64,000 nucleotides of DNA from Patescibacteria group bacterium (GTDB taxonomy: Bacteria > Patescibacteriota > Patescibacteriia > PEXW01), in NCBI GenBank assembly GCA_038063455.1, contig JBBTVB010000005.1, positions 3,482 through 67,481 of the forward strand, in the 5' to 3' direction. Numbering within the stretch: position 1 is the stretch's first letter; each line of letters opens with the position of its first letter. Below the pieces are notes generated by a model that was not told where the DNA came from, ran no database searches, and saw only the letters and a list, made by a program, of their open reading frames with translations. Below, one piece after another: positions 12,183 through 57,223 of the stretch. Both the position numbers and the translations under genes were made by a program.

Positions 12183-12950
12183 TTAGCCTATTTCCCCGTC
12201 CACGACTTCCCGGGCCAGCTTCTCATACGCTTTGGCGCCCTTGCTGCCCGGGTCAAAATGCCGGATGGCTTTGCCGTGGCTCGGTGCTTCGGCCAGCTTT
12301 ACGTTGCGCGGGATAACCGTGCGAAAAATTTTATTCGGGAAGTACTGGTACAACTCTTGGAACACAGCTTGGGAGAGTTTGTTACGCTCATCGTACATTG
12401 TCATCACCGCGCCGAGCACGGTCAGGCCGGGCTGCAGGCTCTGCTTGATGGCCGCAATGGTCTCAACGAGCTGGCCCAGTCCTTCGAGGGCGTAGTACTC
12501 AGTCTGGACGGGAATGAGAATCTCTTCCGCCGCGACCAAACCGTTGAGGGTAAGGATGCCCAAACTTGGCGGGCAGTCGATAATGATGTAGTCGTACTCG
12601 TTGCGGACTTCGGCCAGGCTTTCCCGCAATTTGTGCTCGCGTCGGTCCAGCGGGACGAGCTCAACGTTTGCCCCGGCCAGGTCCAACGTCGCCGGGGCTG
12701 CTCGCAAACCGTCCACGGCGGTGTCCTGCACGATATCGCGGAAAGATTTAAGCCCGATAATCGCATGGTAGACGCCGTGCGGGACTTTTCGATGGTCCAC
12801 ACCAATGCCTGACGATGCATTGCCTTGGGGGTCAATGTCTACCAGCAGCACAAACTTGCCCAAGCTGGCCAATTCGGCAGCAAGATTGATTGCGGTCGTG
12901 GTCTTCCCCACACCGCCTTTTTGATTTACTACTGCAATAACACGCGCCAT
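12183..12950 (-). CDS. parA: Chromosome partitioning ATPase ParA/Soj
   Basis: Deviant Walker A 'NQKGGVGKTTTA'. ATG at 12950; the tracked TTG at 12959 is an alternative. Confidence 0.93.
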   Translation of the reverse strand: MARVIAVVNQKGGVGKTTTAINLAAELASLGKFVLLVDIDPQGNASSGIGVDHRKVPHGVYHAIIGLKSFRDIVQDTAVDGLRAAPATLDLAGANVELVPLDRREHKLRESLAEVRNEYDYIIIDCPPSLGILTLNGLVAAEEILIPVQTEYYALEGLGQLVETIAAIKQSLQPGLTVLGAVMTMYDERNKLSQAVFQELYQYFPNKIFRTVIPRNVKLAEAPSHGKAIRHFDPGSKGAKAYEKLAREVVDGEIG

Positions 12951-23274: not shown

Positions 23275-25494
23275 TTATGAAAGGCGTGTCCGGCGGAGGA
23301 GTAGTGAGTTACCTACCACGGACACGCTCGAAAGAGCCATCGCCAAACCGGCCAACTCTGGCCGCAAGGTAAGACCAATACCGGCAAAGACCCCGGCGGC
23401 AATGGGAATACCCGCGACGTTGTAGAAAAGCGCCCAGAAGAGGTTTTGGACGATCTTCCGGAAGGTGAGCCGGGCCAATTTTATGGACCGCAACACATCC
23501 ATCAAATCATCACGCACCAGGACAATCTGACCAGTTTCCAAGGCAACGTCCGTGCCGCTGCCAATGGCAATGCCAAGCTCAGCTTGGGCTAATGCTGGCG
23601 CGTCATTCACACCATCGCCCACGAACGCGACTCGCTTGCCCTGGGCCTGCAAATCTTTTACCGCCGCAGATTTATCTTTCGGCAAGACTTGGGCACGGAC
23701 TTCTTGAATGCCAACTTGCTCCGCAATAGCTTTGGCCGTGCGTTCGTTATCGCCGGTTATCATCACCGAGTGTATGCCTATCTTCGCCAAGGCTTCCACG
23801 GCTTGCTTGGACGTCTGCTTCAGCGTGTCGGCCACGGCAATGATGCCGGCAAACGCTCCATCAATTGCCACCAGCATGGCGGTTTTGCCTTGGTGCTCGA
23901 GCTGTTCGATTCCTGCACCATGATTGCCAAGGTCAATGTGCATATCCGCCAAAAGGGCGCGATTTCCCAAGAGCAACTTCTTCCCGTCAACTATTGCAGA
24001 CACACCTTTACCGGTAATGCTTTGGAAGTCCTGCGGTTCGGCCATTGCAAGCTTCTTCGCCTTTGCAGCATTCACTATCGCCGCAGCGAGCGGATGCTCG
24101 GACCGCTGCTCAACTGCCGCAGCGAGGCGCAGCAGTTCGTCTGCTCCCACCCCGCCGACTTGCCGACCCGCCGACTTGCCGACACTCACCACATCGGTGA
24201 CAACCGGCTTGCCGTGCGTGAGCGTGCCGGTCTTGTCGAACATCACCAGGTCAATCTTCCGCGCGGCTTCCAGGGCTTCACCGCCTTTTATAAGAATCCC
24301 CTGTTGCGCGCCCAAGCCCGTGCCAGTGATAATTGCCGTGGGCGTAGCTAAGCCCAGTGCGCATGGACAGGCAATAACGAGCACTGCCACGAACTTCAGT
24401 AAACTTTCCACAAACGTTGCGCCGTTCAAGAAGTACCAGGCGATGAAGGTGATGAGCGCAATGGCAATGACCGTCGGCACGAAGTACGCAGAGACGCGGT
24501 CGGCAAAACGCTGGATAGGCGCCTTACTGGCCTGGGCCTGCTCCACGAGTTTGATGATGCCAGCAAGCAGCGTTTCACTCCCGACTTTCGTGGTGGTAAA
24601 GGTAAAACTGCCGCTGCCGTTAATCGTGCTGCCAATGACCATGTCGCCGACTTGTTTCTCCACCGGTAAACTCTCGCCGGTTACCATGCTCTCGTCCACG
24701 CTGCTGTGGCCATCGAGCACCTTGCCATCCACCGGTACTTTCTGGCCGGGTTTTACGCGCACCACGTCGCCAGCCACGACCTGTTCAATCGGCACTTCCA
24801 CATCTTGCCCATTCCGCACGACGATAGCGGTCTTTGCCTGAAGTTGCATGAGGCTGCGAATCGCCTCGCTCGCCTTACCTTTTGCACGCGCTTCTAGCCA
24901 CTTGCCCAGCAGAACGAACATGATGAGGATGGCCGCGATTTCGAAGTACAAATCGCCCGCAACCAGGCCGAACGTTACGAATAGCGAATACAGGTATGCC
25001 GCGCCCGTGCCAATGGCAATGAGCGAATCCATGTTGGCCGTCCGGGCCCGCAAGGCGCCCCAGAAACCGGTAAAAAATTGCCAGCCGCACCAGAACATCA
25101 CCGGCGTGGTCAAAAACAATTGCCACCAGGCCCGGCCGGGAATACTTTCTATTGCCGGTACCAGGTACATGCCCATACTTATCGCGAGCAGCGGCACCGA
25201 CAAGCTAACCGCGACCAATAATTTCCGCGTCAACGCCCGCTGCTCGGCAGCCCGTTCTTGCGCCTCACGGTCAGTCCCCTGCTCCAACTCCCGGGCGCTA
25301 TACCCAATTTTTTTTACCGCCGCAGCAAGTGTGGATACACCAACCATCGACGCATCGTACTCCACATGTGCTCGCTCCGTAGCCACATTCACGCTGGCCG
25401 AGGTGACGCCGGTAGTTTTCCGCAAAGTTAATTCAATGAGCTGGCTGCAGCTCGCACAGTGCATACCTTTAAGCGACAAGGTAGTCGTGGCCAT
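23275..25494 (-). CDS. copA: Copper-translocating P1B-type ATPase
   Basis: HMA 'GMHCASC', 'TGES', 'CPC', 'DKTGTLT' and 'GDGVNDAP'. The ATG at 25494 lies 1 nt after the upstream stop. Confidence 0.95.
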
Positions 25495-25495
25495 G

Positions 25496-25861
25496 CTAGG
25501 TAACAATAATTTTCCCCTGGTACATACCCATATCGCAGGTGAACGAGAGCTCGCCAGCTTTCTCGGGGGTGAAAAGAACCCTCGTCTTCTGGTGGGCAGG
25601 CAAATCTTGACGAATATGCATACCATCAATAATGACAAAACGTGAGCACGCTGCGTTCTCTTGCCGATCAAACGTAAGCGCCACCGGCTTCCCCGCCTGC
25701 ACGGTAATAGCGTTCGGGTTGTATGCACCTTTCACAATGATGGTCGCCTCTTGCACGCCAGACGCACCCACCACCGCTGTCTCTTGCCGACGCTGAAAAC
25801 GCAGCCACAGTAGGTACAAACCAACGACGACGAGAATAAGGATGATCCCGAAAAGTCGCAT
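25496..25861 (-). CDS. TM-anchored cupredoxin-like domain protein
   Basis: N-terminal TM segment and a beta-sandwich region ending '[14 protein letters not shown]'. It parallels the C-terminus of the upstream protein. Confidence 0.7.
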
Positions 25862-25863
25862 AG

Positions 25864-27291
25864 CTATGTGCTCACAACGGTAAAGCTGCCCCGATACATG
25901 CCCATACCGCAGCTAAAAGGCACTGTCCCAGATGCAGTCGGGGTAAACTCAACAATGTTCGTACCGGCGGCAATGAGCGTAGAAACTCGGTACTTCGGCA
26001 CTTGAAAAGTGGATCGGCACCCGCCCGCAAAGCCATTCCCATCAATTTCCCATCGCACAGGCACACCCGCCCGCACCGTAAAGGTAAGTGGACTGTAGCC
26101 GGTATCGGTAAACTTTGTTCGGACGATTTGCCGGGTTCCATCGAACTCGACATTCGCGTCTTCGGAAGCGGTCATGGCAGGCACGCTGTCCCAGGGCCAG
26201 GTAAGCGGATGGCCGGTGATGGCCAGGCCATTATTGAAATTATAGATGCCCATAACAATAACGGCGGCGCCAGCCACACGAAAGAAAAGCTTGCCCCACT
26301 GGCCTTTGAGCGCATTCGAGGCCCAACCAAGTGCAAGTAACGCTGGGGCCGTGCCAATGGCAAAAGCAAGCATAGTGAGTGCGCCTGCAGTTACGTCGCC
26401 GGTAGTTAACACGTAGAGCTGCAAGGCTTGGGTAAAGCCACACGGCAAAAAAAATGTAAGCGCACCCAGAGTGAACGGAGTTGCATAGCTCACCTTTCCG
26501 CCCGCTCCGCTGCTCATGACCTTGCGGCTAATGAACTTGGGCATTCTCGGTAGCAGGCTTTTCAGCCAGTTGGGGGCAATTCGGAGCATGTCCAAACCCA
26601 TGACCAACATAAACAACGCAGCGAAGATAGTGACGAGGCCAATGGCCCAAGGGGGTAAGGCTAGCGCTTTCCCTAAACCAGCAATAAGCGCCCCAAATAC
26701 CGTGTACCCAACAATACGCCCGGCAACAAAAGTGCCGACCGGCAGAAAACGCTGTTTCCCTGGAAGCAAGCCATAGTGGTCGCTTACGCGCTCGACCGAA
26801 GAAAGCATGAGCCCGCCAGCCACGGCAATGCAGGAGCTACTGGCGGCCACGAGGCCAAGAAAGAGCACGCTGAAAAACCCACCCGAACCATCCACAGATT
26901 GGTTGAAATTGAGGAACCCCAGTTTGGACAAGATAAAACCAATAACTAAGACGACCATAAAAGCGCCGGCCATTTGCGCGAGGGTGGGGCGTTGCCGGTG
27001 GTCGGCGGCTTGCACATTCGGTTGTACTTTAAATGTCTGGCCCCCCACTGGTTCGACCATCCCCGCTACCACGCCATACCCGTGCGGCTTGATGGCGTCA
27101 CTAATCTGCTGTGGACTAGGCACCTGCTGTTGATCACAGAGTACCCGCATGCGATTGCGATCCGCATTGGCTTGCACTTTGTGGACGCCGGGGAGCTTCG
27201 TCACCGCCTGTTCGACGAGCAACTCACAGCTCCGACAGTGCATGCCAGTGGTTTGTACATCGAGAAGAATCTGCCCGTCGTGTGCTCGCAT
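25864..27291 (-). CDS. Fusion protein: HMA domain, polytopic DsbD/TauE-like membrane domain and cupredoxin-like domain
   Basis: N-terminal 'GMHCRSCELLVEQ', roughly 8 hydrophobic helices, and a C-terminal 'FSCGMGMYRGSFTVV'. Confidence 0.75.
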   Translation of the reverse strand: MRAHDGQILLDVQTTGMHCRSCELLVEQAVTKLPGVHKVQANADRNRMRVLCDQQQVPSPQQISDAIKPHGYGVVAGMVEPVGGQTFKVQPNVQAADHRQRPTLAQMAGAFMVVLVIGFILSKLGFLNFNQSVDGSGGFFSVLFLGLVAASSSCIAVAGGLMLSSVERVSDHYGLLPGKQRFLPVGTFVAGRIVGYTVFGALIAGLGKALALPPWAIGLVTIFAALFMLVMGLDMLRIAPNWLKSLLPRMPKFISRKVMSSGAGGKVSYATPFTLGALTFFLPCGFTQALQLYVLTTGDVTAGALTMLAFAIGTAPALLALGWASNALKGQWGKLFFRVAGAAVIVMGIYNFNNGLAITGHPLTWPWDSVPAMTASEDANVEFDGTRQIVRTKFTDTGYSPLTFTVRAGVPVRWEIDGNGFAGGCRSTFQVPKYRVSTLIAAGTNIVEFTPTASGTVPFSCGMGMYRGSFTVVST

Positions 27292-27292
27292 A

Positions 27293-28246
27293 TTAGTTAG
27301 CTAGACACGTTTGAGGTGTGGAAAATCTTCCGCAAGTGTTCACCTGCGATTGCAGCATGCGCTCATGTTCCTCGCGACAGATGGTGAGGTGCACTGCAGT
27401 GGATGGCGAAGGGTGCTCACCAAATACAGCGGCGATACTCTTCGGTGCAAAAACAATCGCCCCCGTGGCAATCACTAGAGCAACAAGCGTAAACTGTACC
27501 GCAAAGGCGCCTGACTGCTTGAAATGCGGATTCACTAAGCGTTCCACCCGGGCATCCAAGGGACTAAAACCTGCCGCGGCAACGGGCGGGGTAACAAGTT
27601 GCAGCAAGGCACTCCCGAGAACATTTTGGTCACGCACGTGTTCATCAGCCTCCACCTCGGATGCCGCAATGTAGGCATCGCGCAGCTGTCGACGGAGTTT
27701 TGCAAAGGGTACCCACAGCAATGCCAACGTAAGCCCTAAACGACGCAAAGGCTCGCGCATGCGTACATGGTGTGCTTCGTGCTCCAAGACGGCTTGCAAT
27801 TGCGCTGCGGTTAAGGTGCGAAGTGCTTGAGAAGAGACCACAACTTCGGGCCAGCGTAGACCAATAGTCATGGCGTACGCCCGTTGATCTGCGGCAATGG
27901 TCAAGCGACTACACTCCAGATCTGCATCTGCCGCAATGGAAAACACGCGTACTGGAACCGGCAGCCTTTGTAAACGCACGGTTCGAGCCATTCGCATTGC
28001 CCGGTAAGCATTGTAGCCCAACCAGGTAGTAAAGAGCGCCAGCAATACAATCCCGAGACTGGCGTACACAATTTGATCACGGGTAATGTCTGCCCAGGCC
28101 ACTTGGCAAGCATAACTCACGGCATGAATAGTATTCTGCAGCGTACTGATTGCATGGGGCCACAATCGAATAAAAAACACGATAAGAAAAAAAATACCCG
28201 CCAAGCTCCCAAGACTTAAGAAAGTGAAAACGCGGCTACTCTTCAT
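27293..28246 (-). CDS. BlaR1/MecR1-like M56 membrane metalloprotease (sensor half), lacking a penicillin-binding domain
   Basis: TM helices, the HExxH motif 'LEHEAHHV' and a Cys/His-containing C-terminal tail. It overlaps the blaI-like stop (ATGA). Confidence 0.8.
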   Translation of the reverse strand: MKSSRVFTFLSLGSLAGIFFLIVFFIRLWPHAISTLQNTIHAVSYACQVAWADITRDQIVYASLGIVLLALFTTWLGYNAYRAMRMARTVRLQRLPVPVRVFSIAADADLECSRLTIAADQRAYAMTIGLRWPEVVVSSQALRTLTAAQLQAVLEHEAHHVRMREPLRRLGLTLALLWVPFAKLRRQLRDAYIAASEVEADEHVRDQNVLGSALLQLVTPPVAAAGFSPLDARVERLVNPHFKQSGAFAVQFTLVALVIATGAIVFAPKSIAAVFGEHPSPSTAVHLTICREEHERMLQSQVNTCGRFSTPQTCLAN

Positions 28247-28617
28247 GAACGGTTGAGTTTACGGCGCAGTTTTTCCAGTCGTTTCGGGTCTACAGCATCG
28301 AGGGCGTCAACAAAATGTGCGAGGGCAACATCGCCATAGCCGCCCACAAGCTGGTCAACGCTCTTGCGAACCGCTTGCTGCACAAACTGTGCCTTGGGTA
28401 TGGCTGGGGTGTACTGGTACGCGTTGTCAACTAACTGGCGCTGCAACACGCCTTTATCAAAAAGCCGCTGCATCACGGTCATGACGGTGGTGTAGGCACA
28501 ATCACGTTTTAGGGTCTGCAGAACATCCCGCACCGTCACCGGGCTAGCTGCCCAAATAACCTCCATGATGGCAGTTTCTAAGGCTCCAAAACCAGGAAGG
28601 GTATTTTTGGTGGGCAT
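28243..28617 (-). CDS. BlaI/MecI/CopY-family winged-helix repressor
   Basis: 'LETAIMEVIWA...VTVRDV...YTTVMTVMQRLFDKGVL'. The ATG at 28617 is chosen because the operator-like palindrome lies just upstream. Confidence 0.85.
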   Translation of the reverse strand: MPTKNTLPGFGALETAIMEVIWAASPVTVRDVLQTLKRDCAYTTVMTVMQRLFDKGVLQRQLVDNAYQYTPAIPKAQFVQQAVRKSVDQLVGGYGDVALAHFVDALDAVDPKRLEKLRRKLNRS

Positions 28618-28622
28618 AGCTA

Positions 28623-28635
28623 CTACAAAGTGTAG
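28623..28635. promoter_or_regulatory. Candidate BlaI/CopY-type operator
   Basis: Perfect palindrome C-TACA-AAG-TGTA-G, 6 nt upstream of the repressor ATG. The TACA/TGTA half-sites are typical of this family. Confidence 0.45.
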
Positions 28636-28659
28636 CAGTGCTGCCAAAAGCGTCAAGCG

Positions 28660-30165
28660 CTAGCGGCGCGCAATGGTATACACGTGCAAGTGCTTGAGTG
28701 CACCCTCGGCTAATGTTAAGCGGCTTGTCGTCCGACCGTAACACGTGTACAGAATTTCTCCAGCTATCACTCGGTCGCCAATCCGCTTACGCAAGTGGAT
28801 ACCGCCCAGCTTGTCGTCGGGTGCACCCAAGCTGCGGGCCAATTCGTCCACGGCGCGGTTGTTGACTGCGGTCACGCGCCCGGCATGCCGCGCGATCACG
28901 CGTAAACGCTTGCCCCCAAGCGTGACATCTTCCGAATCGAGGTTGGGCTTGCCACCTTGGCTACGGATAATCCCTTGCATGCGCTGCCAGGCTTTACCCG
29001 AGAGCAGCTGGTCGCGCGCAATACTGGCGCCTATCCCCTTGCCCGCCATGCCAATGAGCTCGATGAGCATGCCGGCAAGCTTGACTGCTTTCTCTTCCAA
29101 ATCGCGCGGACGAAATTCCTTTTGTTGCAAAACACGTAGCACATCTCGCGCTTCCAGGGCGGGGCCAACGCCCTGACCAATTGGCTCGCGGGCCTGAATC
29201 ATGGCCACGCGAACGTTGATTTTGAAGCGTTTGCCAAGGTAGCGGAACTTCGCTGCCAGGCGGGTAGCTGTGGCAAGATCGGGAATTTTCATGTGCGGGC
29301 CATAGGGCATGTCAATAACCAAATGCGTTACGCCCATGGCCACCTTCTTCGCCATAATCGACACAATCATTTTGGAATACGGCTCCAGCGACAAGGGCCG
29401 CGAGACTTTAATAATGCGGTCATCGGCCGGGGCCAGCAGCAAGCCGCCACCCCACACCATGCAGGCGTTATTCTTTTTTACAATCTGCCGAATCTTGACC
29501 ATGGAGAAGGTTACCGGCGCCAGCACTTCCATAGTGTCTGAGGTGCCGGACGGGCTGGTAATAGCGCGCGAGGAAGTTTTAGGAATCGTCACACCCAAGC
29601 TGGCCAGGATGGGGACAACAATCATGGTTGTTCGGTTGCCGGCCACCCCACCCACCGAGTGCTTATCGGCCACCACCTTCTTGCCAAACCGAATCTGCTC
29701 GCCGGTTATAGCAATGGCTTTGGTTAAGTAGTACAGCTCGTCATTACTGTATTCCCGCACAAAACTGGACGCCACAAAATATGTGAGCTCGGTAGTGCCA
29801 AACTTGTTGCTGACAATATCCCGCACAATGGCCAGAATGTCTTTCTCGCCCAGGCGCTGGCCCAGCAGCTTCTTCTTGAGCGCTTCAATAGACTCGGGGC
29901 GGGCCAGGGGCTCCAGCATAATCGGCTCACCGGCGCCGATATGGTTGTCCCGCCAGACCTCGCGAAACAAGCCAATTTCACCCGGCCGCACGCGGCGGTG
30001 GGTGAGGTCGGCTTGGACCACGATTTTCTTCCCGTCACTTTGTAAGAGCAACCGGTCACCGGCGCGGATGCCAAAGTTGGTACCGTCTTCATTACGCAGC
30101 ACCACCACGTAGGGCTGGCCGCCAGTGCTCAAGTCAAATCGTTTTGCCCGCAAGACAAATGCCAT
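28660..30165 (-). CDS. deoA: AMP phosphorylase / thymidine phosphorylase family (archaeal-type, long N-terminus)
   Basis: 501 aa with 'DKHSVGGVAGN' and an N-terminal extension of about 80 aa ('RAKRFDLSTGG...VVLRNED'). Confidence 0.85.
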   Translation of the reverse strand: MAFVLRAKRFDLSTGGQPYVVVLRNEDGTNFGIRAGDRLLLQSDGKKIVVQADLTHRRVRPGEIGLFREVWRDNHIGAGEPIMLEPLARPESIEALKKKLLGQRLGEKDILAIVRDIVSNKFGTTELTYFVASSFVREYSNDELYYLTKAIAITGEQIRFGKKVVADKHSVGGVAGNRTTMIVVPILASLGVTIPKTSSRAITSPSGTSDTMEVLAPVTFSMVKIRQIVKKNNACMVWGGGLLLAPADDRIIKVSRPLSLEPYSKMIVSIMAKKVAMGVTHLVIDMPYGPHMKIPDLATATRLAAKFRYLGKRFKINVRVAMIQAREPIGQGVGPALEARDVLRVLQQKEFRPRDLEEKAVKLAGMLIELIGMAGKGIGASIARDQLLSGKAWQRMQGIIRSQGGKPNLDSEDVTLGGKRLRVIARHAGRVTAVNNRAVDELARSLGAPDDKLGGIHLRKRIGDRVIAGEILYTCYGRTTSRLTLAEGALKHLHVYTIARR

Positions 30166-30188
30166 GTGCCAAGTATAGCAAACGAAAA

Positions 30189-30210
30189 GTACCCCACTGC
30201 GGTGGGGTAC
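30189..30210 (-). terminator. Intrinsic terminator after the micro-ORF
   Basis: GTACCCCAC-cgca-GTGGGGTAC followed by TTTTCGTTT on the minus strand. Confidence 0.65.
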
Positions 30211-30231
30211 TTGAATATGCAGAAAGAAAGA

Positions 30232-30309
30232 CTAGCCTTCACAGGTGCACCCTTCTGCGGTGCAGTGCGTGCCGGCTTCGTGCTCGTGGCCACAGGTTGC
30301 GCATGCCAT
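30232..30309 (-). CDS. Cys/His-rich micro-protein, 25 aa (MACATCGHEHEAGTHCTAEGCTCEG)
   Basis: Absent from the ORF track because it is under 60 aa. It has a strong SD (AAAGGAGGTGGAG, 8 nt before the ATG) and is the last gene of the sod-cupredoxin operon, ahead of its terminator. Confidence 0.5.
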   Translation of the reverse strand: MACATCGHEHEAGTHCTAEGCTCEG

Positions 30310-30341
30310 AGTCTCCACCTCCTTTCAGTCAGTCGCGCTGG

Positions 30342-30839
30342 TTACTGGACAATAACTGTCCCGCGCGTCGTTGGGCTAAAGTGGTTGTGGTAGCCCCAGG
30401 TGCCAACCTGGGTAAAGGTAAAGCTGTAGGTTTCGCCGTTGCTAAGGTTAGAGGATTCCAGGCCCGGCAAGTCTGTATGCGTTGGGTGGGGGTCAGAAGC
30501 GACGCGGACGGTGTCACCAGAGCGGTTGGTCCATATCACGGTGGTTCCGGCCTTGACCGTGATAGTTGCCGGTGAGTACCCAGCCGCGGTGACACTGACT
30601 GCTGTCTCTGTCGGTACCGCTGCGGTATTGGCGTTTGTGGTGTTCGTGCTGGTACTCGCGTTTGCGTTTGTCACGGCATGCACATTTGCATTGGCAACGT
30701 TGGTATTCACAGCGCTGGTGTTGATTGCGGCGGTATTCGTAAGGTTAATGGTTACCGTGTTCGTGTTGGTGGCTTTGGTACAGGCGGCCAGGGTGAACGG
30801 CAGCAGGGCCAGCAACCCGAGTAAAAAGTATTTCTTCAT
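30342..30839 (-). CDS. Cupredoxin-like lipoprotein with an Asn/Thr-rich linker
   Basis: Lipobox 'LPFTLAAC', a linker rich in N-x-T/S, and a C-terminal 'VIWTNRSGDTVRVASDPHPTH...GYHNH'. Confidence 0.75.
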   Translation of the reverse strand: MKKYFLLGLLALLPFTLAACTKATNTNTVTINLTNTAAINTSAVNTNVANANVHAVTNANASTSTNTTNANTAAVPTETAVSVTAAGYSPATITVKAGTTVIWTNRSGDTVRVASDPHPTHTDLPGLESSNLSNGETYSFTFTQVGTWGYHNHFSPTTRGTVIVQ

Positions 30840-30855: not shown

Positions 30856-31449
30856 CTACGAAGCGCTGGCGCGGACGTACCGACTATCAACATCCTGCCA
30901 GTTGATGTTTTGCAAGAAGTTTTTGATGTACGTTGGGCGGTCTGAACCGACGTCGATAAAGTACGCATGCTCGTACACGTCCAAGCAGAGCAACGGGGTG
31001 CAGCCCCACACGCCACCCTGGTTCTGTGCGTCGGCGGCGTAGAGGTGTAGCTTGCTGTCCGAAGGGTCAAAAGCCAAAATCGCCCAACCACGTGCGGCCA
31101 TGGCCGTGGCGGTCAGGGCTGCCACAAAGGCCTCCCAGCTGCCCCAGGTGGCCACAATGGCCTCGTGCACTTTGGTGCCGGCCGGGTCGCCGTTCCCGCC
31201 CAAGTTGCTAAAGTGCACTTGGTGCAAGACCATGCCGTTGGCGGCAAACGTCTCGCCTTCTTTTAGGCCGCGGTAAGCAGAGTAGACCTGGTTTGCCTTG
31301 GTGGCATCGGCCTGGGTAATAGCTTCTTCGACTTCGTTGCGCTTGGCCACGTAGCCAGCGTAGAGCTTGTCGTGGTGGATCTCGACGGTCTTTTTGGAAA
31401 TACCAACGAGCTCTGAGCTAAAGGGCAGAGGTTGAACGACGTGCGGCAT
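30856..31449 (-). CDS. sodA: Fe/Mn superoxide dismutase
   Basis: 'EIHHDKLYAGY' and 'DVYEHAYF' metal-ligand motifs. Confidence 0.95.
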   Translation of the reverse strand: MPHVVQPLPFSSELVGISKKTVEIHHDKLYAGYVAKRNEVEEAITQADATKANQVYSAYRGLKEGETFAANGMVLHQVHFSNLGGNGDPAGTKVHEAIVATWGSWEAFVAALTATAMAARGWAILAFDPSDSKLHLYAADAQNQGGVWGCTPLLCLDVYEHAYFIDVGSDRPTYIKNFLQNINWQDVDSRYVRASAS

Positions 31450-31475: not shown

Positions 31476-31694
31476 TTAGGGTACCAGTTGCTGGCCAGCC
31501 AGGTCGGTAATGATGATTGCTTGCGTCGGGCAGGCCCGGGCCGCGTCCAGGATGACTTCGTCGGGGTCGCCGGTGGCATTGATGATTATGGCCTTGCCTT
31601 CATCATCCAAGGCAAACACCTCTGGGGCCACCGCTACGCAGCTTCCAGCCGATATACATTTCTCCCGGTCGACTTCGATACTCTTGAACGGCAT
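31476..31694 (-). CDS. Small ferredoxin (single Fe-S cluster type)
   Basis: 'CISAGSCVAVAP' and 'ARACPTQAI'. Starts at ATG 31694. Confidence 0.8.
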   Translation of the reverse strand: MPFKSIEVDREKCISAGSCVAVAPEVFALDDEGKAIIINATGDPDEVILDAARACPTQAIIITDLAGQQLVP

Positions 31695-31719: not shown

Positions 31720-32088
31720 CTACACGGTCGGCAACTCCGCAACCGCTTTTTGCGTGGCCACCAGCCCCAGGGTGGCGCATTTCAATCGCGCCGGGTTCAC
31801 CGTGGTTTCCAAATAGCCCTCAATATCACCAACACCCAGTGCAGCAATCTCCGCTTTAGCCTTCCCGACCAGGTGTTCAGAAAGCGCCGACATGCTGGCT
31901 TGGCTTACCGCACAACCTTCGCCTGTCCATTGCACTTCACCGACTTTCCCCGCTGCATCATATTTTAGAAAAACTTCAATAACGTCCCCGCACAGCGGGT
32001 TGGGCTCCCGGTGCGTCGCATCGGCAGGATTAAGTACGCCGACATTACGGGGGTGGTGGTAGTGGTCGAGGAGGGTGGAGTCGTACAT
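31720..32088 (-). CDS. sufU: SufU/IscU-like Fe-S scaffold
   Basis: 'NPLCGD', 'GCAVSQAS' and 'RLKCATL'. Confidence 0.85.
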   Translation of the reverse strand: MYDSTLLDHYHHPRNVGVLNPADATHREPNPLCGDVIEVFLKYDAAGKVGEVQWTGEGCAVSQASMSALSEHLVGKAKAEIAALGVGDIEGYLETTVNPARLKCATLGLVATQKAVAELPTV

Positions 32089-32154: not shown

Positions 32155-32442
32155 CTACATCTTGTAAATTATCGTAAATCGATTTCTATAGTTCAGACCC
32201 TGAATAGTAATTCCAGTTAGCAATCCATAGACAAAAACATTTTGGAAATGCATGAGTAGGAGTAGGCCGAGAGCGGCGCTTCCCCACATCCAATGATGAA
32301 TGTGAACGTAGTAACCGTGGATACGAAAAATCCAAGATCGCACACGCCCTTCTACCCCAGCTCGAGGGCCAGCAAAAAACTTGGCGGCACCGTAGCCGAC
32401 GATACTGCTCAAAAAGAAAAAAATAACGGTCGTTATGTTCAT
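32155..32442 (-). CDS. Small membrane protein (95 aa), His-rich loop
   Basis: Three hydrophobic helices and 'HGYYVHIHHWMW'. The start overlaps the sufS stop (ATGA). Confidence 0.6.
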   Translation of the reverse strand: MNITTVIFFFLSSIVGYGAAKFFAGPRAGVEGRVRSWIFRIHGYYVHIHHWMWGSAALGLLLLMHFQNVFVYGLLTGITIQGLNYRNRFTIIYKM

Positions 32443-33746: not shown

Positions 33747-34430
33747 TTAGCTATCTTTCCAGGGCTCATCTGAGCCATTGCCCGATTGCAGCGTATCTTG
33801 CCAAGTTTCGCCTGCAAACAATCTCGGCGCAGGGAAAAAACTCGAAAAAAGCCGGTGAATGCTCGGGGTGGCAATTGTAGGTGCAAGTTTGGCCACATGC
33901 TGGACAACAACCAACGTCGTTATGCGGAATACTTCGGTTGGGTTCGCGTACAAGTACGTATGCCAGGTAGCCGCATCCCACATGCGGGGGTGCGCTGGCA
34001 GGCCATGGTTTGGCTGCACGAGATTTTCACCGACATTTTGCAAAAATGCACAGCGCAGACTTCGAATGCGTTCCACTTGATAGTGGCGGCTAGGAACGTC
34101 TAAAAATCCTGCGGCGCGCGTCACAATTTCGTCATACGACTGCTTCGTCTCTGCAAACGACGCACGCACACACGCCTTCATTGCAGCTTCGACAATGTTC
34201 ATTTCTGCATGCAGCACGCTCTCACCAATGTCTTCACGTACGCAGGCGTCAATCAATTCTTTGCCAGTAACCACAAGCTCGCTATCAATAAAATTACCAA
34301 AGTTACCGGTGTCATTGCTCAGGCTTCGATACGGCTTGAGTACCGTGCACAGCGTGGCTACGTTCAGCGCTGGTAGTCTGCGCCAAATATTTACTGTGTG
34401 CGGCGATTCTACGCTTTGCTTAGCGCGCAT
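33747..34430 (-). CDS. Hypothetical protein (227 aa), no recognisable family
   Basis: Its start overlaps the upstream stop by 11 nt (ATGCGCGCTAA), which suggests translational coupling. Confidence 0.65.
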   Translation of the reverse strand: MRAKQSVESPHTVNIWRRLPALNVATLCTVLKPYRSLSNDTGNFGNFIDSELVVTGKELIDACVREDIGESVLHAEMNIVEAAMKACVRASFAETKQSYDEIVTRAAGFLDVPSRHYQVERIRSLRCAFLQNVGENLVQPNHGLPAHPRMWDAATWHTYLYANPTEVFRITTLVVVQHVAKLAPTIATPSIHRLFSSFFPAPRLFAGETWQDTLQSGNGSDEPWKDS

Positions 34431-35877: not shown

Positions 35878-35906
35878 TTGACAGTACAGACGACTAGTCG
35901 TATAGT
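35878..35906 (+). promoter_or_regulatory. Consensus-like sigma70 promoter
   Basis: TTGACA, a 17-nt spacer containing the palindrome CGACTAGTCG, then TATAGT. Confidence 0.6.
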
Positions 35907-35947
35907 TGCATGCTAGCTTGTAAAAAACAAACCTAAGGAGGTGCAGT

Positions 35948-36226
35948 GTGCTATACACACTCATTATCCTCATCCTGTTATACCTGGTTGCCGGCTGGTG
36001 GCTGACGAAAAAACGTCTAGAAGCAATGTCAAAGTTGACGCCGGATCGACCCTTCATTCAACCAAAGGATCCTAAGGAGAGAAGACGGCGGCAACAAAAA
36101 ATAGGCAGAATACTCTTCTGGATAGGGTTCACCATATTCTGGGTGCCCATATATGCTACCCAATGGCTTACAGGTAACAAGGATGAGGAAACATCCATCC
36201 AAAAAAAGACGAACGACTCTGCATAA
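35948..36226 (+). CDS. Small two-TM membrane protein (92 aa)
   Basis: GTG start after AAGGAGG. Two hydrophobic helices are separated by a basic loop (KERRRRQQK). Confidence 0.6.
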   Translation: MLYTLIILILLYLVAGWWLTKKRLEAMSKLTPDRPFIQPKDPKERRRRQQKIGRILFWIGFTIFWVPIYATQWLTGNKDEETSIQKKTNDSA

Positions 36227-36240
36227 CCACAATTGTAACC

Positions 36241-36274
36241 GTACTCCTCATGCTGGCATGAGGAGTACCTTTTT
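36241..36274 (+). terminator. Intrinsic terminator
   Basis: GTACTCCTCAT-gctggc-ATGAGGAGTAC followed by CTTTTT. Confidence 0.75.
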
Positions 36275-57147: not shown

Positions 57148-57223
57148 AGTTTTATTTTTACAAATGTATTGTAGCAGAAAAAATACTTTTTGTAAAGGAT
57201 TTTCATATTACCATCTATGTCTG

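Follow-up and report, generated by a model that had tools for sequence, protein, structure and literature searches.

A 25-codon Cys/His-rich micro-gene conserved at the end of a suf-ferredoxin-sod gene string in Patescibacteria encodes a candidate metallothionein-like peptide

The copper metallothionein of Neurospora crassa has 25 residues, and the mycobacterial MymT, which is regulated by a copper sensor and carries a C-x-x-E-G-C-x-C-like stretch, has ~50. The shortest well-characterized bacterial metallothioneins are twice as long as the peptide described below, and haloarchaeal CPxCG proteins, which have paired CPxCG motifs, are typically longer than it as well. The bacterial BmtA/SmtA family (Pfam PF02069; PDB 1jjd) is defined by an N-terminal zinc-finger fold, a fully conserved site A and a contact between Tyr31 and Ala37, and genes of this type are easily missed by annotation (PMC3323870). 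Small metal binders rich in Cys and His are a known kind of protein, and here we describe a micro-gene of groundwater Patescibacteria whose product fits none of the sequence families described so far. It lies on a 64,000-nt stretch of DNA from a Patescibacteria group bacterium (GenBank assembly GCA_038063455.1, contig JBBTVB010000005.1, positions 3,482 to 67,481; hereafter the window), where it is the last member of a string of genes that includes suf genes, a ferredoxin gene, a superoxide dismutase gene (sod) and a gene for a cupredoxin-fold lipoprotein.

The micro-gene occupies positions 30232..30309 on the minus strand (ATG 30309-30307, TAG stop 30234-30232), and its translation, MACATCGHEHEAGTHCTAEGCTCEG, has 25 residues, five of them Cys and three His. 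A first-pass annotation made from the sequence alone had described an open reading frame (ORF) of this length and composition without stating its strand, and had put it 32 nt after the stop codon of the lipoprotein gene, a distance that is exact (TAA 30344-30342). The Shine-Dalgarno (SD) sequence AAAGGAGGTG (30316..30325, minus strand) is separated from the ATG by an 8-nt spacer and was called very strong in the first pass. Its 9-nt match to the anti-SD is the longest among the ~57 crude gene calls of the window, and 42 of these calls lack an SD. A terminator scan located an intrinsic terminator at 30177..30212 (minus strand); its G+C-rich hairpin (30212-30187) starts 19 nt past the stop of the micro-ORF and consists of an 11-bp stem, AAGTACCCCAC/GTGGGGTACTT, and a 4-nt loop, followed by TTTTCGTTT. 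The hairpin folds with z = -4.0 relative to shuffled controls, in agreement with the GC hairpin and U-run noted in the first pass. Rfam returned no family over the micro-ORF region, its two matches being noise.

Comparison with related genomes shows that this ORF is maintained as a protein. Eighty loci from species-representative genomes were fetched via alignment of lipoprotein homologs, and in each of the ten closest (L001-L010) an ORF that starts with ATG and is exactly 25 codons long follows shortly after the lipoprotein gene; all 10 of the 10 syntenic species-level genomes thus have the micro-ORF at the equivalent place. No comparable micro-ORF was found near the more distant homologs (L011-L080) when all 80 loci were scanned for the motif in six frames, nor in a listing of downstream ORFs for L011-L040. 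Public metagenomes were also scanned with a degenerate DNA pattern representing the Cys/His skeleton, which gave 16 matches: ten copies of the micro-ORF, all in the same synteny, and six that we rejected as chance, namely four identical contigs in which the motif lies antisense to an epimerase-like gene, a single match out of context (L093) and one in the zinc finger of an IS91 transposase (L095). At least five variants come from the metagenome Ga0172379, and the names of contigs point to the Hainich H51 groundwater well. In every locus that extends far enough (L086 is too short), the gene immediately upstream of the micro-ORF is that of the lipoprotein.

In total we have 15 distinct versions of the peptide, that of the window and 14 more, all of 25 codons and in the same position. 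Their consensus is M-x-C-x2-C-G-H-E-H-[ED]-x-G-x2-C-x2-E-G-C-x-C-x2, with M1, C3, C6, G7, H8, E9, H10, G13, C16, E19, G20, C21, and C23 invariant. Only two of the three His in the window's peptide are conserved (H8 and H10), position 15 being H, K, P, or Q in relatives. Across 11 orthologs, all 12 invariant residues other than Met show synonymous codon variation and zero replacements, and pairwise differences at the three codon positions number 252/250/666. Over 15 orthologs the mean proportion of nonsynonymous differences (pN) is 0.18 and that of synonymous differences (pS), which is near saturation, is 0.74 (pN/pS 0.24). The DNA flanking the micro-ORF is unalignable except for the SD, which is kept as AAAGGAGGTG or AAGGAGGTG in 9 of 10 orthologous genome loci, with the remaining intergenic DNA diverged; at L009 and L096 the SD is missing and the peptide is nevertheless retained. 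Most orthologous loci have a hairpin of differing sequence followed by T residues in the same place (judged by eye, unfolded and unscanned), and the structure of the terminator appears to be conserved and its sequence not. Given the synonymous-rich substitution pattern, the fixed length and the diverged flanks, the micro-ORF is under purifying selection as a protein and is a real protein-coding gene. The first-pass annotation had made its proposal depend on whether the ORF, as opposed to the hairpin, is conserved in relatives, and it is the peptide that is constrained while the hairpin sequences differ.

The gene had also been expected to be unannotated, and none of the ten variants that we looked up occurs in a collection of ~15 billion predicted proteins. 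Pfam, NCBIfam, and PDB sequence searches with the peptide gave no significant family, a tblastn search against plasmids gave only a chance match (E = 3), and a search of the literature on metallothionein in Patescibacteria or the candidate phyla radiation found nothing relevant. When 1.84 billion representatives were searched exhaustively with phmmer, with a 30-codon in-frame stretch of the window as the query, the single match was the 59-residue protein P0121 (E = 1.5e-4), which is the only called relative. Its sequence, MDQATEEKK-MCAMCHHEHSAGEMCTAEGCMCDG-KTCPACHHEHKEGKVCGADGCNCGKE, contains the module twice in tandem, with His replacing Gly7. Word-indexed searches with P0121 found no further relatives, and a profile of artificial doubled peptides recovered only P0121 again. 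P0121 is encoded on a 512-nt AT-rich contig (L097 1-512), where no cupredoxin gene is visible. The same contig carries a 64-residue gene fragment upstream; P0121 has an apparent -10 box and terminator of its own, after which a following gene starts with TATAAT-N9-ATG. From its sequence context, P0121 looks to be in its own transcription unit. The module therefore occurs beyond the lineage of the window and is open to duplication, and it is practically invisible in protein databases.

The 15 versions have a mass of ~2.5 kDa, an isoelectric point of 4.2-4.8, five Cys (20%), two or three His, and zero to two aliphatic residues, and neither they nor P0121 contain any Phe, Trp, or Tyr. Metallothioneins are operationally recognized by low mass, a Cys content of at least ~15-20%, CxxC and CxC motifs, few or no aromatic residues, and several metal ions bound in thiolate clusters; the peptide has all of the sequence marks, with one CxxC and one CxC, and may form such a cluster. 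With no aromatic and almost no aliphatic residues, it should lack a hydrophobic core and fold only around metal. Position 2 holds Ala, Ser, or Gly in every version, so that the initiator Met could be removed, probably leaving 24 residues.

Resemblance to the BmtA/SmtA family is confined to its C-terminal part. Nine of the 15 members match Pfam Metallothio_Pro (PF02069) below threshold, all on profile positions 31-51 of 51 (best E = 0.23), and hhalign places C6, H10, G13, C16, G20, C21, C23, and G25 on C36, H40, G43, C47, G51, C52, C54, and G56 of SmtA (sequence checked as PDB 1jjd), in a weak alignment (probability 18.7%, P = 0.0013). The aligned SmtA residues C36, H40, C47, C52, and C54 are metal ligands in the published structure. 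Both proteins end in the tail C-x3-G-C-x-C-x-G-COOH, by our count SmtA residues 32-56 contain five Cys and two His just as the micro-peptide does, and SmtA is a small cytosolic metal binder using Cys and His, as is predicted here for the micro-peptide. However, the micro-peptide is half of SmtA's size, has nothing like the zinc-finger fold that residues 7-38 of SmtA form (site A), and lacks a counterpart of SmtA residues 1-31 and of the Tyr31/Ala37 pair; a search of the PDB with a profile of the peptide did not retrieve 1jjd at E <= 10. It is not a member of the BmtA/SmtA family. With the N. crassa metallothionein and MymT, the likeness lies in comparable size (N. crassa), the use of Cys plus His, and a copper-stress context, and the difference in the number and spacing of ligands; unlike MymT, the micro-ORF has no metal-responsive operator that we could find.

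Other small metal proteins were compared in the same way. The N-terminal half, C-P-x-C-G-H-E-H-E-P-G, resembles the N-terminus of MasE and mirrors the first rubredoxin knuckle, C-x-x-C-G-Y-x-Y-D-P (PDB search, E = 0.5-2, 5-7 bits per domain), but membership among rubredoxins was rejected, as there is only one knuckle, no aromatic core, and a second half of the form C-x4-C-x-C. Neither this resemblance nor that to metallothioneins establishes membership. The peptide shares with the haloarchaeal CPxCG micro-proteins (e.g., Brz; PMC2253796, PMC10117724) its very small size, its construction around C(P)xCG and its tendency to be overlooked by gene callers; those proteins are archaeal and some are regulators, in contrast to an acidic, CxC-tailed peptide from Patescibacteria, and with a single CxxCG and C-x4-C-x-C spacing in place of a pair we do not count it among CPxCG zinc fingers. 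The CopZ/Atx1 chaperones, built on an HMA domain, could be functional analogs, as small cytosolic thiol-based carriers beside a CopA-type pump. Membership was rejected here too: the micro-peptide has no Pfam HMA match, no ferredoxin-like fold, and no MxCxxC, a motif present in the window only in two fused HMA domains. No free-standing CopZ was found in the window, which covers part of the genome.

The first-pass annotation had the micro-ORF closing a sod-cupredoxin operon. It does close a string of genes, but that string is longer than sod and cupredoxin and runs, all in one direction, sufD..sufS-mem95-sufU-fdx-sod-cupredoxin-microORF. On the minus strand, upstream of the micro-ORF, are the cupredoxin-fold lipoprotein gene (30342..30839; 165 residues with an Asn/Thr-rich linker; Pfam Cupredoxin_1, E = 2e-9), whose product is 100% identical to a protein of an NCBI Patescibacteria metagenome-assembled genome; a gene for an Fe/Mn superoxide dismutase (SOD), 16 nt upstream of it (30856..31449; Sod_Fe_N and Sod_Fe_C); a gene for a 72-residue single-cluster ferredoxin between sufU and sod (31476..31694; Fer4_13, E = 4e-14), a short ORF that is easily overlooked; and a sufU/iscU-like scaffold gene (31720..32088; NifU_N). 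The gaps from sufU through ferredoxin, sod, and lipoprotein to the micro-ORF are 25, 26, 16, and 32 nt. Farther upstream in the same direction are mem95, sufS, two unknown or HATPase-like ORFs, and sufD, and a terminator scan of the minus strand from 30342 to ~35900 predicted no comparable terminator. A small plus-strand gene and a palindromic hairpin at ~36.2 kb part the string from sufCB. This gene, a 92-residue membrane ORF (35948-36226) with an 11/12 sigma-70-like promoter, breaks up the suf cluster of the minus strand, parting sufB from sufD (window 35878-36268), and the 12-bp palindromic hairpin next to it is at 36241-36268. Two further minus-strand proteins within the suf string, one of 227 residues without a Pfam match (33747-34430) and a membrane protein of 95 residues (32155-32442), are conserved in several orthologous loci.

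Across the clade the order is sufS-sufU-...-lipoprotein-microORF / AMP-phosphorylase-like gene-BlaI-M48/M56-HMA/DsbD/cupredoxin-cupredoxin-CopA. The sod gene is present at 6 of 10 orthologous genome loci and absent from four (L007-L010), which keep the lipoprotein gene and the micro-ORF; the stable pairing of the micro-ORF is therefore with the lipoprotein and not with sod. The lipoprotein family is widespread in Patescibacteria and DPANN archaea (L001-L080).

The neighborhood contains the sod, cupredoxin lipoprotein, and copper efflux genes pointed out in the first pass, and Pfam assigns them as such, the last through a CopA-type ATPase at 23275-25728. The translation of CopA reads CPC, Nx6YNx4P, and Mx2SSx5N, which are P1B-1 Cu(I) signatures. 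Downstream of the micro-ORF terminator a -10 box, TATACT (30177-30172), marks the start of the next transcription unit (30163..30177, minus strand), with the ATG of the AMP-phosphorylase-like gene 6 nt on; the arrangement TGCTATACT-N6/7-ATGGCATT past the terminator is kept in most orthologous loci, and the AMP-phosphorylase-like gene is predicted to be leaderless. Leaderless-looking genes are common in the window, with a TGnTATACT/TACACT-type -10 box ending 6-7 nt before the ATG, and such boxes also precede the gene starts at 12950, 14593, 19210, 28617, and 40994 (minus) and 62362 (plus); an SD of at least 5 nt occurs in only ~8 of the 57 crude gene calls.

The first gene of the copper cluster is the AMP-phosphorylase-like one (28243-30165, minus strand), and 3 nt beyond its end lies a gene for a BlaI/CopY-family repressor. 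Because this repressor has no C-terminal CxCx4CxC metal motif like that of CopY and comes together with an M48/M56 BlaR1-like protease, sensing in the copper cluster would seem to be protease-based rather than by direct binding of metal. No CopY/BlaI-type operator (TACAnnTGTA) is present near the locus, the sole match in the window being at 57159 (chance expectation 0.4). Next in the cluster is a 475-residue fusion of HMA, DsbD-like transmembrane, and C-terminal cupredoxin domains (25864-27291, minus strand), followed by a 121-residue cupredoxin and CopA; the fusion architecture is unusual for copper handling and is kept across the clade.

We consider it moderately probable that the micro-peptide is a cytosolic, abundant, metallothionein-like protein in which five thiolates and two imidazoles bind Zn(II) and/or Cu(I). 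The metallothionein-like character proposed in the first pass finds support in the composition and in the sub-threshold likeness to the C-terminal part of SmtA/BmtA, and the neighboring cluster, with its P1B-1-type Cu(I) ATPase and HMA domains, counts in favor of a metal binder. The peptide would wrap C3, C6, C16, C21, and C23 together with H8 and H10 around metal ions, assisted by invariant Gly at turns (C-G and G-C) and by two invariant Glu; the resulting thiolate/imidazole cluster would likely hold at least two ions of Zn(II) or Cu(I). The peptide may act stoichiometrically, as a buffer or chaperone, a role that fits because its SD is the strongest of all the crude gene calls. Fe-S biogenesis is sensitive to Cu(I). 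Since the micro-ORF stands at the end of the suf/ferredoxin/sod string and beside a Cu(I) efflux cluster, a protective role is suggested, in which free thiophilic metal would be kept off nascent Fe-S clusters; alternatively, the metal may be handed on to the neighboring Cu(I) efflux system.

Several observations weigh against this assignment or against parts of it. There is no statistically significant similarity to any metallothionein (Pfam; hhalign probability 19%), the window's own peptide scoring 9.4 bits against PF02069, where the cut-off is 33. The N-terminal half is as rubredoxin- or zinc-ribbon-like as it is metallothionein-like, and a single structural site with a non-buffering role is possible. 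AlphaFold2 (AF2) modeling of P0121 without an alignment gave a mean confidence (pLDDT) of 61, too low for a fold search, and the family is seen in one lineage plus one outlier, P0121, which makes comparative inference on function thin. Aligned to amicyanin, the lipoprotein has Asn, Ser, and Thr in place of all three C-terminal type-1 Cu ligands, Cys92, His95, and Met98; the conserved His motifs of its family (DPHPTH and YH[ND]H in the lipoprotein alignment) suggest some other site, not type-1 Cu. The copper cluster, behind the terminator and a predicted promoter of its own, is probably a separate, leaderless unit. The copper specificity suggested for the micro-ORF in the first pass is therefore not supported, given a lipoprotein without type-1 ligands, a string of its own made up of suf, ferredoxin, and sod, an efflux cluster that is apparently separate, and the absence of sod at four loci. 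The copper link is real for the neighborhood and not demonstrated for the micro-ORF's own operon.

The most serious competing explanation, which we regard as unlikely without dismissing it, is a structural zinc-knuckle or zinc-ribbon micro-protein that holds one Zn(II) on four Cys/His and serves as an adaptor, regulator, or subunit rather than a buffer, its partner being for example the Suf machinery, lipoprotein biogenesis, or the adjacent BlaI/M56 sensor pair. The invariant CxxCG, which is C-P-x-C-G in 7 of 15 variants, would suit such a protein, and the best PDB matches, although non-significant, are rubredoxin knuckles and the zinc/iron-binding small subunit MasE (N-terminus MKCTECGHE); zinc ribbons (UPF0547, Zn_ribbon_RRN7) are among the sub-threshold Pfam matches, and regulatory small CPxCG zinc-finger proteins are known from haloarchaea (PMC2253796, PMC10117724). 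However, seven invariant ligand residues exceed what one tetrahedral site needs, and the second half offers C-x4-C-x-C where a second CxxC knuckle would be required. The strongly acidic peptide is unlikely to bind nucleic acid, its very strong SD suggests high abundance, and the only co-varying candidate partner is the exported lipoprotein, which once folded is beyond the reach of a cytoplasmic peptide. A miniature rubredoxin-like iron or Fe-S peptide, carrying electrons, iron, or clusters for the Suf, ferredoxin, and oxidative-stress genes, strikes us as improbable. It would account for the position as last gene of the sufD...sufS-sufU-ferredoxin-sod string and for the likeness to a first knuckle (C-x2-C-G-[YH]-x-[YH]-[DE]-P), but the second knuckle and aromatic core are missing, the matches have E = 0.5-2, and by inspection the peptide matches none of the known Fe-S motifs (CxxCxxC, Rieske, or CDGSH spacing). 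Moreover, SOD needs no rubredoxin, and the short contig of P0121 (512 nt) shows no suf gene beside it.

We give very little credence to two further readings. In one, the ORF is a regulatory leader or attenuator whose Cys/His codons, through their translation, control the terminator and read-through into the AMP-phosphorylase/cop cluster, the peptide itself being functionless. A strong terminator that comes 19 nt after the micro-ORF, with another gene cluster beyond it, would suit such a leader. The substitution pattern has already largely refuted it: amino acids are conserved over the whole peptide, Gly, Glu, and His included, and the length is fixed. The hairpin sequences vary by locus, with no conserved antiterminator pairing noticed by inspection (not by folding), and a leader role would be senseless for P0121 with its tandem modules. 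Past the terminator, the downstream gene is preceded by a conserved -10 box of its own and seems to be leaderless; because this TGCTATACT box is conserved, the copper cluster is taken as a separate unit of which the micro-ORF is unlikely to be the leader. In the other, Cys residues of a ribosomally synthesized and post-translationally modified peptide (RiPP) would yield a copper-binding product of the chalkophore, methanobactin, or bufferin kind, a scarcely credible outcome here. A short Cys-rich peptide close to copper genes invites the comparison, and P0121 has a very weak NCBIfam match to a Cys-rich RiPP family (E = 7.9). The first-pass annotation had thought a RiPP precursor less likely for want of an adjacent maturase gene, and Pfam indeed finds no radical-SAM, YcaO, MNIO/DUF692, lanthipeptide, or protease/exporter gene among 17 neighboring proteins; the neighbors are Suf proteins, ferredoxin, SOD, the lipoprotein, AMP phosphorylase, and BlaI/M56. 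Nor is there a division into leader and core, all 25 residues being constrained, or a signal peptide.

The metallothionein-like reading leads to a broader proposal, which we put forward only tentatively: that the module C-x2-C-[GH]-H-E-H-x2-G-x2-C-x2-[ED]-G-C-x-C defines an unrecognized family and the shortest known bacterial metallothionein-type protein (24-25 residues), that it can be duplicated in tandem, and that in genome-reduced Patescibacteria it may replace CopZ/BmtA-type proteins as a cytosolic Cu(I)/Zn(II) buffer, shielding Fe-S assembly through co-transcription with Suf. Independently of its function, the gene is a functional one that is invisible to standard annotation and yet bears a clear coding signature across species, and it illustrates that pattern-based six-frame searches recover micro-protein families missed by protein databases. 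If metal binding is true, the peptide would be among the smallest natural metal-thiolate proteins and a minimal model for the formation of Cys/His clusters, and as ACATCGHEHEAGTHCTAEGCTCEG it would be accessible by chemical synthesis. Patescibacteria are not known to have many of the canonical chaperones. A metal-binding micro-peptide would then be a missing piece of metal homeostasis in these ultra-small, host-dependent organisms, and would tie copper defense to Fe-S assembly (suf) and to oxidative stress (sod) at one locus.

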